DNA from: an uncultured Acidobacteriota bacterium
GTDB taxonomy: Bacteria > Acidobacteriota > Terriglobia > UBA7540
Direction: 5' to 3'
NCBI GenBank assembly: GCA_963804995.1
Contig: CAWDSK010000001.1
Span: forward strand, 544,001 to 608,000
Length of the DNA stretch: 64,000 nucleotides
Below are positions 43,379 to 52,544 of the stretch, piece by piece; positions within the stretch are counted from its first letter, which is position 1; each line of letters starts with the position of its first letter. The position numbers and the translations under genes are program-made. The notes below the pieces were generated by a model. The model made no database searches and had not been told where the DNA came from. It saw only the letters and a program-made list of their open reading frames with translations.

Positions 43379-43730
43379 AGAATCCTTTCTTGCCGACGTG
43401 TTGCTGCCGCCGTATTGCGTCGAGTTTTAGTTCAGTGGCATGTACTAGGCCATGTAACAGAAATGCGCTGATGAATTCAGCCCGCGTAGCGGGCGGGTCG
43501 CCGCGGCGACTAGCCCACGGCGTGCCCTGGGCTACGATCTTACGCCCCTGACGGGGCTGCGGAACGGCCCCCGCACGTCAGAGACTTCGTGAGCGAACCT
43601 CGGTTACACGACCCCAGTTTATTCCGACTTTCAGAAGAGCGCAAATTTCGGTAGTGTCCTAATTTGGGCACCAATATACTTGACTCATCCACTGGGTTTT
43701 GGTATAGTTTTGCTTGTGAGGAGCGAAACC

Positions 43731-44699
43731 ATGCGCGAACCCCGTACCCTGCAAGAAGCCATTATCTATTTTTCGAACCCTGACAATTCCCGCGCCTACC
43801 TTGTGGCGAAGCGCTGGCCCCAGGGCGTCATCTGCCCAACCTGCGGGTCGGAAAAGGTCAAATTCAATCCGGCTCGCGGCGTCTGGCAATGCCCCCGCCA
43901 TCATGCCCGGCGGCAATTCTCCGTCAAGGTGGGCACCCTGTTTGAGGATAGCGCCATCGGCCTGGATAAGTGGCTCACGGCGGTGTGGATGCTCACCAAC
44001 TGCAAGAACGGTATCAGTTCCTATGAAGTAGCCCGCGACCTGGGGGTCACGCAAAAGACCGCCTGGTTCATGCTGCACCGCATCCGGCTGGCCTTGCAGG
44101 ACGAGGGCGGCGGCAAGTTGGGAGGAGAAGTCGAGGTTGACGAAACCTTTATCGGCGGCCTCTCCCGCAACATGCACATCGGTAAGCGGCGGGAGAAAAT
44201 CCAGGGCACGGGCGGGCGCGATAAAATTGCGGTCCTGGGAATTCTGAAACGGCGAGGCAAAGTTCGCACTTCGGTCGTTCCCGATGTGACCCTCAAAACT
44301 CTTCGCGGCAGCGTTGTCGAAAACGTTTCGGCGGGCTCGCAGGTTTTCACGGACGCTTGGATTGGTTACCACGGGTTGGATTCCGAATATGTTCATAGCG
44401 TTATTGACCATGCCCAAGCCTATGCCGTGGAAAACGTCCACACCAACGGCCTCGAAAACTACTGGAGCCTTTTGCAGCGCACCCTCCAAGGGACCTACGT
44501 TAGCGTCGAACCGTTCCATTTGTTTCGTTACCTTGACGAGCAAGCCTTCCGTTACAACCAGCGCGAAGGACTTGATGATCGTGGCCGCTTCGATGCGGCG
44601 GTTTCCAGGATCATCGGTAAGCGCCTCACCTGGAATCGCCTCGCCGGAAAGACGCAAGCTCGTCCAACCTGTTCTAACGCACAAGGCAAGGCAACGTGA
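43731..44699 (+). CDS. IS1595 family transposase
   Basis: RWPQGVICPTCG zinc ribbon, KTAWFMLHRIR, EVDETF, FTD, HTNGLENYWS, YLDEQAFRYN; promoter TTGACT-N17-TATAGT starting in the left TIR. Confidence 0.95.
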   Translation: MREPRTLQEAIIYFSNPDNSRAYLVAKRWPQGVICPTCGSEKVKFNPARGVWQCPRHHARRQFSVKVGTLFEDSAIGLDKWLTAVWMLTNCKNGISSYEVARDLGVTQKTAWFMLHRIRLALQDEGGGKLGGEVEVDETFIGGLSRNMHIGKRREKIQGTGGRDKIAVLGILKRRGKVRTSVVPDVTLKTLRGSVVENVSAGSQVFTDAWIGYHGLDSEYVHSVIDHAQAYAVENVHTNGLENYWSLLQRTLQGTYVSVEPFHLFRYLDEQAFRYNQREGLDDRGRFDAAVSRIIGKRLTWNRLAGKTQARPTCSNAQGKAT

Positions 44700-44716
44700 G
44701 CGCCGGGGGAAGCGGG

Positions 44717-44863
44717 TCAAGCCTTCGCCCGCTTCTTCCGCTGGCGTTGCTTCTTCCACTCCGCTTTCCTTCGCTGTAACTCCTCCCGCGGGACGGAGAA
44801 AATCTTGCTGATTGCAGCGTCGAAATTCTGGAATTCTGAGGTTTTTATCCCCTTCTGGCTCAT
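44717..44863 (-). CDS. Small basic passenger protein inside IS1595
   Basis: MSQKGIKTSEFQNFDAAISKIFSVPREELQRRKAEWKKQR..., convergent with the transposase. Confidence 0.5.
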   Translation of the reverse strand: MSQKGIKTSEFQNFDAAISKIFSVPREELQRRKAEWKKQRQRKKRAKA

Positions 44864-45349
44864 AAACATTAAATGCCTCAGTCCGTGACAATACCTTATC
44901 CACTCAACATCGTACACCTCCAACCCGTTCATCTCGCACCTTTCGAATGGATGAGTCAAGTAAGTTGGTGCCCTAATTTGACCGTCCGGTGAACCCATCT
45001 CCCCCGATAGGCTCGCTTGACTTAGCGCTGGACGGCGCGTAGCATCGGCGTATCTCACTGACACTATGGAAGTGCCGGCGCAGAAAGTAGCCATGTGGCG
45101 GGCAACGAACGTTCTTATGACCGCCTTCTCGCAGAGCTGGTTGACGATGGCGCGCCTGAGGTGCGCAATCCCAGCGGCGCCGCCCTCAGCCGCGTCTCCT
45201 GGTGCTTGCGGTCAGTAGGGCCCGCCACACCTGCGCAGCGGCAACATAGATGACGAATGAAGTAGTGGCCCGTCCTCTGCACGGGTCCGAAGTCCCGGGA
45301 TTCGCAGCGGCGGTCGGGAGCCACGCAAATGACACAAGGAGGAGGAGCT

Positions 45350-45823: not shown

Positions 45824-46255
45824 CCAAGGAGGTTATATGAAGCATGTAGCGCCGAGCGCAGCCATCTTTTAGTAGAGGATGGTGAGGCCGCCGTCGGGGC
45901 GCGGGCAGGCGGCGACCAGGCCCCATACCGGCACGCCCGGAGCGTTCCCGCGGATTTCGGTCGGATGGCCAGAGGCGTCGAACCACTGCTACCCGAGTGA
46001 TCCACCCCTTGCCCAGGCCGTCCCCTCCGTCCAGGCGAGGAGCGTCTCACCACGGGAGTTCCCCGCCACGGAGGGATGCTTACGGTCGGCGGCGTCGCCC
46101 GGAGCAGGAATCAGCTCATTCCCACGTGAGGTCGGCGATCCACATGACGTGCAAACGCCCGCCCCGGCCGAGCGCTATTTGCGCCCCCCGCACGCTGCCG
46201 ATAGCCAAAGCGCTGCCGGGAATGCGGTTCACACGAATGGGCGGTAGGAAGCAAG

Positions 46256-46445
46256 GTAGCGCAGAGTCTTGTGCTTTCCGAGACTCTGCGGCTTTTCGTC
46301 TCTTCGGCGCGAATTTCCATCACCAATTATGATCTCCCGAGAAACTGGCTGACCACATCAGGTGTCAAGGTCGTGTGTTAATAATACAGTGTATGTTTAT
46401 CAGAGTAAGAACCGCAGAGTGTGAAAGGCGTACACTCTGCGCTAC
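46256..46445. repeat. GTAG-family REP pair (REPIN-like)
   Basis: GTAGCGCAGAGTC...GACTCTGCG and inverted CGCAGAGTGT...ACACTCTGCGCTAC. Confidence 0.7.
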
Positions 46446-46625
46446 CCGCTCGGTACAAGCCGTCCTGAGTCAGGTTTTCGGCCGCTTGAATCTCAGTGGA
46501 CGCTAAAGCGATCAGGGTACTGCCTCTCTTCCGTTGGGTGATGTTGAAGCTGGGGCGGAGACGCATCTTTCACCATTCTTGGTCAGAAGGTAACAGCTTT
46601 GCCCTCGCGTGGCATCTAGCAGCAA

Positions 46626-47033
46626 TCAGCGGATAAACTCGACGCGAACGAGGCCAGCTTGTTGAACGGGCTCGAAGTCTGGGTCTGCTGTGACCAAAAT
46701 CGCGGCGTGTTCTTCGGCGCACGCTGCAACGAATGAATCACCTAAGCCAAGCCCGGGGTTTACCTTCCATCGGGCAACCCGCTTTATGAATCCCCCGTCA
46801 ATTGTCTCGAGGACCCCCAATAGCTTCGTCGCCCTTTCCCATGCCTCGTTGGCTTTTTCCAAACCGTCCGACCGGAGATAGCCATAATAAACCTCACATA
46901 AGTTTACCGTGTGGATGGCCAAATTGTTGCGCTCGTCCATCAGGAGGCTAGCCACACGTTCGTGGCCTTGTTCTCCCTTGAAATATGCGATTAGAGCGGA
47001 GGCGTCTACGATGTGTGTAATGGCAGCCGGCAC
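46626..47033 (-). CDS. PIN domain (VapC-like) nuclease
   Basis: VDASAL, NLCEV, GLGDSF, LVTADPDF; GTG start overlaps the ATPase stop (TAGTG). Confidence 0.9.
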   Translation of the reverse strand: MPAAITHIVDASALIAYFKGEQGHERVASLLMDERNNLAIHTVNLCEVYYGYLRSDGLEKANEAWERATKLLGVLETIDGGFIKRVARWKVNPGLGLGDSFVAACAEEHAAILVTADPDFEPVQQAGLVRVEFIR

Positions 47034-49573
47034 TATTGCTCTCTTGATCTTTCCACGCGTTCCTGTTCGAAGTACAATTTTGTATCAAATCGGGCGTCTC
47101 GAAGGGCAGCCTCGGATTCCCTTACAAGCTTGGTCCTGTCCACCGCAACAGATGCTTCCTTCCCTGGAGCTGGATAAATGAGGGTGCCGCAACGACAGGA
47201 AAGTTGGCCAATAGGGGCATTGGATGGTGTTATGAATCTGCGGCACTGGGGGCAAAAAACCGCGTCAAAGAGGCCCGCAACCGCATCGCCAAATTCGACC
47301 GTGTCTTGGCGCGATGTGTGCTTTGCCCACTCATTAAAGTGTGCTCCCACCCAATTCCGCACAGGCCAGTTGAGATCGAGTGAGTCGAGAAATGGTCGCG
47401 TTTGCCCGTAGAATGTCGGATAATTTTTGCGGACTGCCTTATAAAATGACGGCCAAAGTTCCCCAATCTCGTACCTTTCGCTCCTCTTGGCTTGAACGCT
47501 GAGCGATAGGTTATATCGCATTTCCTGGAGAATATGTTCAAGGAGTCTTCCGGCCGTTGAGGCAATGTCTTCAGAGGTTCCGTCCGTCAGCAGTTCCTTT
47601 AGGCGGTCGCGCTCATCCTGCGGTTCGCGGAGGTCCGGTCCTTCGTCTATTGTCCATTTGTGGATGACTTTATTGACATAGTTAGCCGAAACGCCGCACC
47701 TGGCCTGTATATCCTGGAAATGTTCGAACCAAATTCTGTCGTGAGTGGTCAATAGGACTTGGTACTCGCCAAATTCCTTTAGCAACAACTTGGAAAGACG
47801 GACAGCATGGGCACTATCTATGCTCGTCAAGATATCATCCAATACAAGCAGATTGAATTCCGGATATCGCTTGCGATGCCATCGTCGCAAAGCGAGAAAA
47901 ATGCTGATGCCAAGAGTGTCAAGATGTGCGTCACTGTAATACCCGCGCGGGTCCTCGTCGGTCTTTTCGTAAAACGAAGACCGTAGATTGGCGCTTCCCT
48001 GTCCTATCTCTCTGACCTCCAGTCGAATCCCGCCGTGACTCTCGTCAGGATGGAGGCGGGTGTAAATACCGTCAATGTCTTCTGATAATTTATTGAATAG
48101 TTCCTGAACAACCTCCCTCCGTGACTCAAGTGCACGCTGATAGACCGTTTCGGCTTGCGCAGCCTCTGCATTTGCGGCTTTGGATGCGGTTCTGAGGGTT
48201 TCTAACTGACTCCATCCTTCCGAGGCGGTTTCAATCCTCTGCCTTGCCGACAGTAATTGTCTTGCCCGATCAGGCGAGGGCAATCCGTCAATGGCTGTCT
48301 GCAAACTCCCAGCAATTCTGGCTATGGAGGCCATCTCGGGCGACTCTGGCAGAAGAACACATATGGAGCGATCCAGGACTTCGAGGTCGAGATTGCGAAG
48401 GCCTTTATGAACCTCGAGGTCTAACGCAGCGAGCATGGTTGCGAAATCAGTCAAAGGCTGTGTTTGGATTATGTGGGCGGGAAGTCCGGTAGTGGTTAAT
48501 GATTTCCTGGCTTTTGCCAAAGACTCCGTCATCGCACGCACGGAAGCGATTGCGCGGGTCAGTCCAGATGATGCTTCATTACGCAGCGAGATTAGCTCTC
48601 GCATGGAGTCCAGCCGGGCCTGTGCCCTACCGATAGTTGCGGCAGGCTCGATGGGGTTTTCGCAAAGCGGACAGGCAGCGCGGTTTTCTTCCCTTATCCA
48701 CTTGATGCCATCTTCCAGAACCCGGTCATAGAATACCTTCGACTCCGCTGCCTCCTTTTCGTGGAGCTTCCTGCACGCTTCTGTGAGTTGGGAAAGGGTA
48801 TCAGGTGATGTAGCCTCCAGCAGTTCGAGAAGAGAAGCCTTCGCATTCATTAGACCGCCTGCCACGGCCGTGTCGCCGAACTTGGCCAGTTCATGGTCCA
48901 GCAAGCTCAATGACCCGCTTATTTCGTCGGGTGAAGAGATCGAGTTGTGGCCCACGTCCGCCAGGATCTTAGAAATCGCTACAACCAGACTCGCCTTGGT
49001 TGGCTCCCCGACGGTCCCTAGAGTCTTGCTTATGGAGCCCGCTAATTGGGCTACTCGGGCTTGTGCAATTGCAGCATTTTTATTCGCCTCATCCCTCGCT
49101 TCTCTCATCGCGTTCTCAACTTCTTGAATTCCGACAAGAGGTAGGAATGGGCGCAGGTAGGCGTACCGCTCGCGGGGCTGGGATTCAATGAAGCTCAAGA
49201 TATCTCTGCGGCGCAGGATGAAGAGATCCTCCTTTGCACCACCCAGATACGCGACGAAGCCCGTGGGGGTTACTGAGGTTTCCCCTTCCAGGTCGTAAGT
49301 AAGATCCGGACTTGAAAAGACGAGAGAAATCGAAGGTCCTGATGCCCCAGCGTGAATATGAGGGCCTTGACGGTCTGAAGAAATTCCTTGCGCACGGCCA
49401 TCTAAGGTAGCTACACGTCCACAGAGCAACCTTTCAATTGCATCCACAAAAGAACTTTTCCCAGTCCCGTTTTCACCGAACAGAAGCATAGACTTCTTGT
49501 CAAAAATTAAGCTACAGCCCGGGAGCGCAACCCCTCGGAAGCCTGCGACATTTAGGCGGCTAATTAACGGCAT
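47033..49573 (-). CDS. Rad50/SMC-like ABC ATPase with zinc hook, HEPN-like motif and C-terminal zinc finger
   Basis: Walker A GENGTGKSS, coiled coil with CPLC, degenerate signature YSDAH, Walker B LLVLDD, LTTHD, RNWVGAH, CPQC...CRC. Confidence 0.85.
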   Translation of the reverse strand: MPLISRLNVAGFRGVALPGCSLIFDKKSMLLFGENGTGKSSFVDAIERLLCGRVATLDGRAQGISSDRQGPHIHAGASGPSISLVFSSPDLTYDLEGETSVTPTGFVAYLGGAKEDLFILRRRDILSFIESQPRERYAYLRPFLPLVGIQEVENAMREARDEANKNAAIAQARVAQLAGSISKTLGTVGEPTKASLVVAISKILADVGHNSISSPDEISGSLSLLDHELAKFGDTAVAGGLMNAKASLLELLEATSPDTLSQLTEACRKLHEKEAAESKVFYDRVLEDGIKWIREENRAACPLCENPIEPAATIGRAQARLDSMRELISLRNEASSGLTRAIASVRAMTESLAKARKSLTTTGLPAHIIQTQPLTDFATMLAALDLEVHKGLRNLDLEVLDRSICVLLPESPEMASIARIAGSLQTAIDGLPSPDRARQLLSARQRIETASEGWSQLETLRTASKAANAEAAQAETVYQRALESRREVVQELFNKLSEDIDGIYTRLHPDESHGGIRLEVREIGQGSANLRSSFYEKTDEDPRGYYSDAHLDTLGISIFLALRRWHRKRYPEFNLLVLDDILTSIDSAHAVRLSKLLLKEFGEYQVLLTTHDRIWFEHFQDIQARCGVSANYVNKVIHKWTIDEGPDLREPQDERDRLKELLTDGTSEDIASTAGRLLEHILQEMRYNLSLSVQAKRSERYEIGELWPSFYKAVRKNYPTFYGQTRPFLDSLDLNWPVRNWVGAHFNEWAKHTSRQDTVEFGDAVAGLFDAVFCPQCRRFITPSNAPIGQLSCRCGTLIYPAPGKEASVAVDRTKLVRESEAALRDARFDTKLYFEQERVERSREQ

Positions 49574-49748
49574 CCACTGTCACCCCTTGATGATAAGCTT
49601 CTAAGAGTTTTTCTGGTTGGCCCAAGGTTCCATCTCGCCGCATTTCCTCTAGGTGAGACACAAGCCCAGGCGGAACCTGGCGGTCCGCCCTTAGCTTAGC
49701 CATTAACCTGTCTAATACTTCATCCTCAATTGACTTGACGTTGTCCAT
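49560..49748 (-). CDS. Small helical protein, first gene of the ATPase-PIN operon
   Basis: 62 aa, GGAGG RBS, 14-bp overlap with the ATPase start. Confidence 0.7.
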   Translation of the reverse strand: MDNVKSIEDEVLDRLMAKLRADRQVPPGLVSHLEEMRRDGTLGQPEKLLEAYHQGVTVDAVN

Positions 49749-50152
49749 CTGGCTTGCCTCCCAAACTCGCGGTCAGGAAACGGGAATGACATTCCCGTGT
49801 ACAAGTAGTTTGCATCATACTTGCCGATAAAACAACAGCGAGCAGCAAGCGTAGTGCGGCCCTATAAAAGGTCCGCGACATTTTGTTGTCGATGGGGGAC
49901 GAAACGCAGGAAGGAAAACACGGGATACGGGGGACGGGATACGGGGAACGGCGCAGAGCTCCGCGCCACTTGTTACCACTGCTGGTGAAACGCGGGATAC
50001 GGGATTAGGGAAACGGGACAAGGGAAAGCCGCCGCAAACGGTGGGATTAATCGGGCGTTCGAATTCACCTTCAACATTCACCGCAGTTATCCTAATGCTT
50101 GACAGTCGCCTCCCTCTCCGTTACCGTGGGGCTTGGTGCAAGGAGGTTCCTG

Positions 50153-50404
50153 GTGACTGTCCATCTTCCCCCCCAGGTCGAACGTATCGTCAATGATGCC
50201 CTTCGCTCCGGCCAATACCGCTCGGCCGAAGACGTGCTCTCGGAAGCGATCGCCGTCTGGCAGGCGCGGCAAGCCGCGGCGGCGGAGCCGTCCGAGGAGG
50301 AGCGGCAAGCGGCCATTGAGCGGCTCAAGAGCTTCGGCAAAACGCACCAACTTTCCTTGGGCGGCATCACCCTCAAGCAACTCCGCGACGAGGCGCGTCC
50401 GTGA
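50153..50404 (+). CDS. ParD-like RHH antitoxin
   Basis: AGGAGG RBS, GTG start; VNDALRSGQYRSAEDVLSEAI; GTGA overlap with the PIN gene. Confidence 0.8.
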   Translation: MTVHLPPQVERIVNDALRSGQYRSAEDVLSEAIAVWQARQAAAAEPSEEERQAAIERLKSFGKTHQLSLGGITLKQLRDEARP

Positions 50405-50814
50405 GTTGGATTGTCCTCGATGCCTCCGTTACTTTGTCCTGGTGTTTTCCCGATGAGCAAACGCCCGCCGCGATGGGAGTGCTGGACTTGCTGAAGGCGG
50501 GCGAGCAAGCCCTGGTGCCTGCCTTCTGGTGCTCCGAGGTCCTCAATTCCTTGCTCGTGGGCGAGAGGAAAGGGCGTATCTCTGCCGACCAAACACGGGC
50601 TTTCCTCAAAGATCTTCGCGCCTTGCGCCCCACACTCGACAATGCTTCCCTGGAGCGGGTGGTCCAAGACATCCAGGCGCTTTGCCGCCAATATGGCTTG
50701 GCTTCGTACGATGCGCTTTATGTGGAGCTTGCTATGCGGTCAGGGAGTCCCCTTGCCACGCTGGATAAGAGTCAGCGAGAGGCTGCCTTGGCAATCGGAG
50801 TGACTTGCTTGTGA
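50401..50814 (+). CDS. vapC: VapC PIN toxin
   Basis: VLDASVTLSW, EVLN, SYDALYVELA, LATLD. Confidence 0.9.
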   Translation: MSWIVLDASVTLSWCFPDEQTPAAMGVLDLLKAGEQALVPAFWCSEVLNSLLVGERKGRISADQTRAFLKDLRALRPTLDNASLERVVQDIQALCRQYGLASYDALYVELAMRSGSPLATLDKSQREAALAIGVTCL

Positions 50815-51049: not shown

Positions 51050-51189
51050 CGCAGGGCCCGCACTCCGGCCCCGCGGCTTTTCCAGCGGTGCGGGTTCTTG
51101 CCGCGCCGCAAACAAGATAATCCGAATTTTCATCGGTCGCGCCGCCAAAAGCACGGCGCATAACTCCGCGCCACTTGCCACCGCCCTTT

Positions 51190-52290
51190 CCAGCCCCAAC
51201 GGGGCGTACTAACAAAGCCCGGGGCAACGCCCTGGGTCAACGAAGCCACCCCTTTCCATCGGTAAGCCCTGAAGGGGCGTGCTAACCCTACTCGCCATCG
51301 TGCCCGTTCGTCCCAGCCGGTGGGGCGGTTCAGGGGGTTGCGTAGATCGCCCCCTTCGCTTTGCTCAGAGCCTGCCCTGAGCGGAGCGAAGGGGCAGGCT
51401 CTACAGGGCTCGGGCCGGGAACCAATCTGTTAACCCAGGGCGTTGCCCCACCATTAAGATCGGCGGACCTTCGGCCTGGGCGTGGTAGGACGCCCCGTTG
51501 GGGCTCACAAGAACCTGGCGAGCCCTGCGCGGCGAAGCCGCACCCAAAACGTGCCACGGCCATCCGAAGGTGTGAAAAAATACCATTTTCACCGCTGAGA
51601 CGCTGAGACGCAGAGAAATGACCCTTTGTTTTCAAGCCTCTGCGCCTCCGCGTCTCCGCGGTGAAAGGTTTGATGGGATTCTTTCACAGCTTCTCCTGGC
51701 CGTGTCGGTCACGGGCGAGAGAAGCTGTGAAGAAATCCCTAAACGAGCAAAAGCATCTCGCGCAGAGACGCAGAGGCGCAGAGGCTGCAAAGAAAACAAA
51801 CCAGTTATTTGCTTAAAATCTCTGCGCCTCAGCGGCTCTGCGCGAGATTGTCTATTTCTTCACACCTTCAGACGCCCGTGGCACAGCGTAAAGGCCAGCG
51901 GCCTGCGCCCCAGAGCCGGCTTCTGGCGTCCACCATTAGGATCGGCGGACTTTCAGCCGGGGCCGCGCTCGGCCCCGATCATCAATTTGGAAAGAACGTG
52001 CTATCGGGGCTCGGCCCCGATGATCAATTTGGAAATAACGCGCTATCGGGGCTCGGCGCGCCACCCCTCCTCATCTGAGGCGGGGAGTGTTTTTAAGAAC
52101 TCCCCGCCTGATTTCCGTGGCGCCGTAGGCGACGGGGGTGGTTACCGCCTCCGCCGGGCGACTTGGCGCCACGATCAACACGACGCTTCTATCTTGTCAC
52201 CGCCACGCCACCGCTTGTCAGCACCACGCCTTTTCAGCACCACCCCGGCGCTCGGCGCGCCACCCCTCCTCATCTGAGGCGGGGAGTTCT
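51190..52290. repeat. Dense cluster of REP-like, MITE-like and tandem repeats
   Basis: AGCCCCAACGGGGC/GCCCCGTTGGGGCT pair; two units bounded by GAAG(G/C)TGTGAA...TTCACA(G/C)CTTC containing CGCAGAG repeats; 42-bp tandem at 51967-52057; 38-bp direct repeat at 52051 and 52250. Confidence 0.8.
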
Positions 52291-52544
52291 TCTCAAGGCG
52301 AGGCCGCTCGGGTCACTCGCTAATATGGACAGCCTTGGTCAGAGACCGCCGCTACAGACCCCGCCATTCGCCCAAACTCCTCAAGGGCCGTAACCTGATC
52401 TGCCGTGCTTTCTTGGTTGGACCTGCGGCTAATGATATTCTTCCCTTGCGGGGAATAGGCCGGCGTTGCGGTGACATCTGCTTATAGGTCCGCCGCCCTG
52501 GGGCGCGGTTAACCTGAAAAATCCATCACAAAAGGAGCTCGCCA

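Follow-up and report, generated by a model that had tools for sequence, protein, structure and literature searches.

A Rad50-like ATPase-HEPN gene with a predicted antitoxin-like tail and an adjoining PIN RNase gene: a probable defense cassette in an uncultured Acidobacteriota bacterium

We analyzed a 64,000-nucleotide (nt) stretch of DNA from an uncultured Acidobacteriota bacterium (assembly GCA_963804995.1, contig CAWDSK010000001.1, positions 544,001 to 608,000), hereafter the window, and found that it carries a real, conserved and probably defensive three-gene cassette: a small protein, a Rad50/SbcC-like ABC ATPase fused to a HEPN RNase domain, and a VapC-type PIN RNase. The distinctive feature of the cassette is an antitoxin-like tail at the C-terminus of the ATPase, which is predicted to lie over the active site of the PIN RNase. 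Its architecture, its HEPN and PIN folds with intact catalytic residues, its gene linkage, its genomic context and the predicted tail-PIN contact are supported by computation. A role in defense or conflict is very probable for the family as a whole. With modest confidence, we favor the more specific reading that the cassette is a mobile, abortive-infection-type defense that backs up restriction systems, in which the tail would plug the PIN RNase until a trigger frees both RNases. Coordinates below are positions in the window, residue numbers refer to the ATPase protein unless PIN is named, and cited papers are drawn on for those parts of their text that were available.

Results

The cassette consists of three overlapping open reading frames (ORFs) on the minus strand. 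A small helical protein of 62 amino acids (aa; 49560..49748) is encoded by a partner gene that overlaps the start of the 846-aa ATPase gene (47033..49573) by 14 nt, and the stop of the ATPase gene overlaps the start of the 135-aa PIN gene (46626..47033) by 1 nt. These coordinates agree with the overlaps described in the original prediction, which was made from the DNA letters and their ORFs. The motifs that it named in the ATPase are likewise all present at mapped positions: Walker A (residues 33-40), the CPLC zinc hook (301-304; 48662..48673), a degenerate signature at position 546, and a Walker B motif ending in Asp-Asp (579-580), to which we add an H-loop (609-612), followed toward the C-terminus by GRLLE (675-679), R739-x5-H745, CxxC (774-777) and CxC (793-795). 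The ATPase motifs are kept across 81 homologues; the closest homologues are 81-86% identical. CPLC is present in 71 of 86 close loci; the region is absent in 14 (partial genes) and cut in one.

A structure model built from the 81 homologues (predicted local distance difference test score, pLDDT, 82.9) has an ABC head interrupted by a long coiled coil, the apex of which carries CPLC. In Foldseek, the best fold matches of this model were Smc, Rad50 and LmuB (E 3.5e-11 to 1.8e-8), with LmuB at rank 4. Searches of Pfam, NCBIfam and PADLOC returned generic ATPase matches alone, the best being to LmuB in PADLOC (84 bits, E 3.8e-24), and in the Atlas the ATPase matched unnamed AAA/SMC clusters alone. 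In PDB sequence searches, neither the ATPase nor its C-terminal profile nor the small protein had a significant match; an ArgR match at E 0.005 over 30 residues is a lead only.

To characterize the C-terminal region, residues 646-846 were modeled alone from 77 sequences (pLDDT 87.4). The best VIA-align match of this model was 2hsb (Z 10.3, root-mean-square deviation 3.0, 119 aligned), and HEPN proteins made up most of the top 15 rows. Foldseek also ranked HEPN proteins first (probability 0.89-0.91), but at E values of about 0.2, and Pfam did not detect a HEPN domain in the ATPase. Across the 77 aligned sequences, which include close and distant relatives, E679 and H745 do not vary, whereas R739 and N740 are each kept in at least 90%. 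This pattern of conservation fits the R-x4-6-H active site motif of HEPN RNases (PMC3710099), and the helical fold, the upstream Glu and the R-x4-6-H motif that mark the superfamily are all present. Modeling thus places a HEPN domain with intact catalytic residues (E679, R739-N740-x4-H745) at approximately residues 651-772 (47258..47623), within 646-798, as the original prediction had proposed. The domain is followed by a zinc-ribbon-like CxxC...CxC element (residues 774-795; 47189..47254), with weak matches to Pfam zinc ribbons in some members. While the terminal finger announced from the motifs exists in the window protein, it is not constant in the family: three of its Cys are conserved in at least 90% of the 77 sequences, but the fourth is variable, with CRC in 49 of 86 close loci and CRR, CRK or CPR in several.

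The last 39 residues of the ATPase (808-846; 47036..47152) form the two-helix, predicted PIN-binding tail, which is 39-40 residues long in all complete close loci and sits on a flexible linker in the ATPase model. The adjoining gene matches Pfam PIN (E 1.3e-19) and, below the cut-off, an NCBIfam VapC family (E 4e-8). Its acidic active site is conserved as in VapC/PIN proteins, with PIN residues D10, E47 and D99 in 58 of 58 sequences and D117 in 57 of 58. The 1-nt overlap of the PIN start with the ATPase stop recurs in 77 of the 80 PIN genes listed, three of these PINs being truncated. None of 8,000 candidates proved to be a longer, fused form of PIN, an absence that carries little weight.

Because the tail and the PIN gene co-occur (below), we modeled the complex of two PIN copies with residues 795-846 in three runs alongside three controls. 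The tail-PIN complex scored 0.89 in three runs, as compared to 0.02 for the best of the controls; the runs share at least 88% of their contacts, with a partner pLDDT of at least 72. Of solved pairs, 116 of 157 reach the mark applied to this score, as do 2 of 215 mismatched pairs; for the tail-PIN job these figures are only roughly valid. Tail residues 813-845 are predicted to contact PIN helices and the catalytic E47, D99 and D117, such that the tail would lie over the active-site cleft and cover three of the four acidic residues. The C-termini of VapB antitoxins cover the VapC active site likewise (PMC5389673). The closest solved PIN is distant from that of the window (E 1.6e-4).

This predicted coverage also bears on whether the tail might be a tether that recruits an active PIN beside the HEPN pair, with both RNases cutting one RNA, for example a tRNA that phage ligases cannot then repair. 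Both active sites are conserved, the tail directly follows the HEPN domain and zinc ribbon, and RloC provides an example of double cleavage that defeats repair (PMC2610378); a tail that hides most of the PIN active site in the manner of VapB is nonetheless at odds with recruitment of an active enzyme, and we consider a tether quite improbable.

The tail may plausibly descend from VapB. Among 401 genomes of the phylum, the nearest stand-alone PIN genes mostly lie 3' of AbrB-type antitoxin genes, and the C-termini of 25 of these antitoxins align with the tail without gaps and at the same distance from the stop, though the match is weak. Profile comparison of the tail with AbrB-type VapB C-termini by hhalign gave a probability of 18% (pairwise E 0.0013), a score equaled by 85 of 3,000 shuffles and 8 of 77 control windows. 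Separately, the closest stand-alone PIN gene is preceded by a 70-aa, non-AbrB partner gene (locus L112, 1295-1504) that has 48 relatives and belongs to no Pfam family. An origin of the tail from this partner family looked good by eye and failed in comparison (hhalign 0.3%; 2,092 of 3,000 shuffles scored equally high).

Next, we assembled 31 genome loci and 79 metagenome loci, 110 in all, plus the window. After leaving out five loci without the HEPN part and five without downstream room, 101 were scorable: 79 had both the tail and the cognate PIN gene, 21 had neither, one had PIN only and none had the tail only. The PIN-only locus, L108, is frameshifted and its tail could not be scored; the 21 without either include a truncated close member (L084) and a locus with an unrelated PIN gene approximately 100 nt downstream (L017). 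Within the close clade, PIN is adjacent in 80 of 81 scorable loci, in line with the expectation that it would commonly accompany the ATPase homologues. Evolutionary distances of the ATPase and PIN proteins are correlated (Spearman 0.62 over 46 pairs; best of 500 shuffles, 0.23). In a tree built without the tail, from residues 500-800, one branch splits 51 tail-plus-PIN sequences from 17 others (Shimodaira-Hasegawa approximate likelihood ratio test, 99); this was a quick search with long branches among the outgroup. The tree indicates that tail and PIN were gained in one event, in a single clade.

Beyond these loci the ATPase-HEPN family is extensive, as the C-terminal profile matches 1,501 clusters (50% identity) at E 0.001. 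The tail profile matches 11 of the best 150 clusters; by eye, a divergent extension is visible in another three. Most of the family thus lacks both the tail and PIN, which makes PIN an addition specific to one clade. Named members of the PIN clade come from records of Acidobacteriota, Verrucomicrobiota and Aerophobota, and the ATPase-PIN pair is kept in register across phyla at approximately 45-65% identity. Matches on plasmids were distant (24, at 22-32% identity), and none carries the tail because none extends beyond residue 801. Thirteen pattern matches on viral contigs included no relative, and phage records gave no match at E 1e-10.

Several relatives differ in domain architecture. Three proteins of 955-963 aa (P0202, P0211 and P0216) carry a second, degenerate HEPN-zinc-ribbon copy in place of the tail (two matched stretches). 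Three others of 576-602 aa (P0270, P0275 and P0282) have a short coil and the same HEPN module, P0270 lacking the CxxC hook by eye. In four Chloroflexota loci (L024, L025, L027 and L031), the ATPase ends or is broken just before or within HEPN, leaving the small gene and ATPase.

The distribution also speaks to a second explanation, in which the cassette is an addiction or guard module: a vapBC pair would have landed behind an RloC-like gene and the antitoxin C-terminus would have fused to the ATPase. PIN would then be freed only by loss, degradation or halted synthesis of the ATPase and not by a conformational switch; it would stabilize the cassette or punish phage attack on it, while HEPN alone would do the sensor-coupled killing. 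The PIN-less bulk of the family looks complete, AbrB-type antitoxins precede the nearest stand-alone PIN genes, and the flexible linker of the modeled tail would suit such an arrangement. Conservation of the pair in register across phyla with a fixed tail length fits either reading and is therefore no direct evidence against an addiction or guard role, which we regard as unlikely but deserving of consideration.

To describe the genomic neighborhood, 85 close loci were grouped at 90% identity into 59 groups, of which 24 had at least 8 kilobases (kb) of flank; neighbor labels were assigned by hand. Fourteen of these 24 well-flanked groups lie in or beside restriction or Hma genes, against approximately 2.1% for the share of the window's genome that is no more than 8 kb from such genes (a rough background estimate), and 16 of 24 lie beside any recognized defense gene. 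The enrichment in defense surroundings foreseen for the homologues was thus recovered. In DUF499 systems, which have been equated with Hma (PMC12839542), the cassette is often inserted between the genes for the SNF2 helicase and the DUF1156 methylase; another insertion site is between the type III genes Mod and Res. Tail-less loci (L016-L023, L028 and L030) repeatedly follow a SNF2 helicase gene, mostly precede type III Mod/Res and are often near relaxase or integrase genes.

These neighborhoods argue against a housekeeping role in DNA repair, as an SbcC/Rad50-like complex with PIN as its nuclease partner. The Rad50/SMC fold and zinc hook would suit such a complex, and one tail-less, PIN-less relative (L105, 4829-7973) lies directly upstream of NurA and HerA-domain genes. 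However, an RNase is fused to the ATPase, the loci are embedded in restriction-modification (RM) and Hma systems, and Mre11 and SbcD are not among their recurrent neighbors. In addition, the cassette was found in none of 30 relatives, 18 congeners among them (several of these genomes are incomplete), and the HEPN module occurs in 12 of 401 genomes of the phylum, the window's own included. Of the explanations considered here, repair is the least probable.

Of the 69 close loci that extend far enough upstream, 67 carry a homologue of the small gene there, and distant PIN-less relatives are preceded by small genes of weak similarity (hhalign 59%, E 9e-5). The small protein had no convincing match in Pfam, PADLOC, PDB or the Atlas (Atlas score under 0.9). 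LmuC models matched none of 55 small proteins, though LmuC is too divergent for this absence to decide. Three of the 55 gave sub-threshold matches to CTD3 (best E 0.0047, 17.5 bits against a cut-off of 28); a CTD3 search of the genome is uninformative because the controls, like the genome, gave no match.

Discussion

By analogy, we infer the defensive role, trigger, RNA targets, release step and small-protein role of the cassette. We propose that the ATPase dimerizes through its heads and zinc hook and surveys DNA in the manner of RloC and Rad50, RloC being a precedent for hook and DNA-dependent control (PMC3458546). In the resting state, the HEPN RNase would be held off internally, and the C-terminal tail would serve as a built-in antitoxin by occupying the cleft that forms the active site of PIN, which would be co-translated with the ATPase. 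A trigger, either DNA breaks or ends or an anti-restriction factor of a phage, might then alter the head conformation, upon which HEPN domains would pair, PIN would be freed or exposed, and the two RNases would halt translation. The small protein may be an accessory subunit or regulator of the ATPase. The original prediction had anticipated a sensor controlling two RNases, and both RNase folds are indeed present; what it overlooked is the C-terminal tail, with its co-occurrence with PIN and predicted binding to it, and the predominance in the family of relatives that have neither.

A number of observations weigh against this proposal, which is itself a computational one. ATP turnover is not guaranteed because Walker B ends in Asp-Asp instead of Asp-Glu. 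The pass of the tail-PIN complex may partly reflect likeness to solved VapBC pairs, in which VapB C-termini bind similarly. Because the tail and PIN were gained once, the 79 loci with both are not independent trials. Ten of the 24 well-flanked groups have no RM or Hma neighbor and eight have no recognized defense gene, and broken loci occur (L004, L047/L048, L084, L092 and L108). Finally, codon 838 of the window copy (47060-47062) encodes Glu, whereas 57 of 58 aligned tails have Lys at this position of the predicted PIN interface; it may be a true variant or an assembly error, and the window copy may therefore be atypical. One could suppose that the family works as proposed while the window copy is decaying, given this unique K838E, a downstream passenger gene broken by a repeat and a nearby IS1595. 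But the three frames are open and full length, the catalytic residues are intact and homologues as close as 81-86% exist, so that decay seems very improbable.

A Rad50-like sensor of DNA state may have captured the inhibitory end of VapB, wiring VapC to sensing that depends on ATP and DNA beside HEPN, and the tail-less parent family (approximately 1,500 clusters of small protein plus ATPase-HEPN-zinc ribbon) may be an uncatalogued, widespread defense system; we put both forward tentatively, as somewhat short of probable. The cassette offers a traceable case of a sensor ATPase recruiting a new effector, as the tail-less parent, the derived clade and free vapBC relatives are all available. The claim of a tail antitoxin is testable with a 40-residue peptide and a 135-residue toxin. 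Moreover, the PADLOC 2.0, NCBIfam and Pfam scans that we ran left unnamed a large family of ATPase-HEPN proteins that is constantly accompanied by a small partner.

Composition and flanks of the window copy

The cassette had been described as richer in AT than its surroundings, and its guanine plus cytosine (G+C) content is 52.7%, as compared to 58.5% for the genome, with equally low values in 17 of 2,418 windows of the same size. At third codon positions, the G+C content of the cassette is 54%, as compared to 73-79% for two housekeeping genes. A scan for promoters and terminators of the cassette gave results at chance level, and DNA contigs of three runs cover parts of it and added nothing on function.

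The window copy's own neighbors (a vapBC-like pair, a broken HEPN-AEP gene and an insertion sequence) are weak. The IS1595 reported as its flank is confirmed (43655-44978; Pfam E 9e-38; copies 99.7% identical on at least three other contigs), but approximately 1.6 kb separate its end from the cassette, and this interval contains a 164-aa gene and the remains of a fourth gene. This fourth gene (46449..46566, within the entry 46378-46566, minus strand) is the 5' fragment, of approximately 39 codons, of a HEPN plus AEP-primase-like gene that we consider an optional passenger and not core. It is cut at a multicopy repeat: DNA similarity ends at 46449, where a repeat of approximately 200 base pairs (bp) begins. 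The genome contains 64 blast matches to this repeat (46249-46450), of which 28 span 150 bp or more, and further repeat families occur at approximately 51100-52300. HEPN-AEP fusion genes lie 3' of PIN in several loci, including L076 (6648-7589) and L032/L033 (11011-11970), the latter with an intact 319-aa version (Pfam HEPN and AEP-like). On the other side, the vapBC remnant corresponds to a divergent ParD-like antitoxin and PIN pair (50099-50814, plus strand) that is not common to homologous loci, while the accompanying remnant, presumptively labeled TIR, has no Pfam match and resembles the C-terminal part of another ORF in the same genome.

Comparison with known systems

The cassette is likened in its working to RloC or HEC-03, yet it belongs to neither RloC nor Lamassu. 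A full-text literature search found no paper that describes it, though the 2020 ABC ATPase classification (Krishnan et al.) and the supplements on Hma-embedded candidates may list the family; one short supplement of PMC3710099 contained no match to it.

Like RloC and PrrC, the ATPase is a single-chain Rad50-like protein whose ATPase motifs are split by a coiled coil with a CxxC hook and which ends in a HEPN-fold RNase domain; its size is inside the RloC range of 658-897 aa, and occasional RM linkage is shared (PMC2610378, PMC3710099). However, the RloC triad is R-x3-E-x36-52-H (PMC2610378), whereas the window protein has G-R-x2-E and a classical R-N-x4-H: Gly675, invariant in the homologue alignment, occupies the E-4 position, Arg is at E-3, and 65 residues separate E679 from H745. 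The cassette also adds a zinc ribbon, the tail, the small upstream gene and the PIN gene. RloC is further defined as a wobble-excising anticodon nuclease that DNA ends activate. Pfam AAA_13, which presumably covers RloC, had no match in the window ATPase.

Lamassu shares the SMC-like ATPase with a small gene before it, and its effector is held inactive until sensing (PMC12663957), as we propose here. While the LmuB match reaches 84 bits, Smc and Rad50 rank higher by fold, and no recurrent upstream gene for an LmuA effector with its CTD was found in the 110 loci. In the window, one effector is instead fused to the ATPase and the second lies downstream, where it is predicted to be held by the ATPase tail.

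HEC-03 pairs an ABC ATPase gene with an adjoining VapC-like PIN gene, embedded in Hma loci, and validated HEC candidates include Hma-embedded ABC ATPases (10.1101/2024.01.29.577857). No HEC model in PADLOC matched PIN at E 0.1, and no HEC-03 model was among the best 25 of 66 matches of the ATPase. According to the available text of that study, HEC-03A bears no relation to VapB, whereas the window cassette has a VapB-like tail, together with a long hooked coiled coil, a HEPN fusion and a small gene. In PARIS (AriA-AriB), an ABC ATPase likewise controls a separate tRNA-cutting nuclease (PMC12839542), but AriA is of the OLD family and AriB is a Toprim protein, and similarity to the window ATPase is confined to the Walker A region.

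A parallel to the tail is found in AbrB-type VapBC pairs, in which the helical, charged end of the preceding gene product is likewise predicted to cover the PIN active site and the gene overlaps the PIN start. What differs is the nature of the predicted antitoxin, which in the window would be an 846-aa sensor ATPase-HEPN protein without the AbrB DNA-binding domain.

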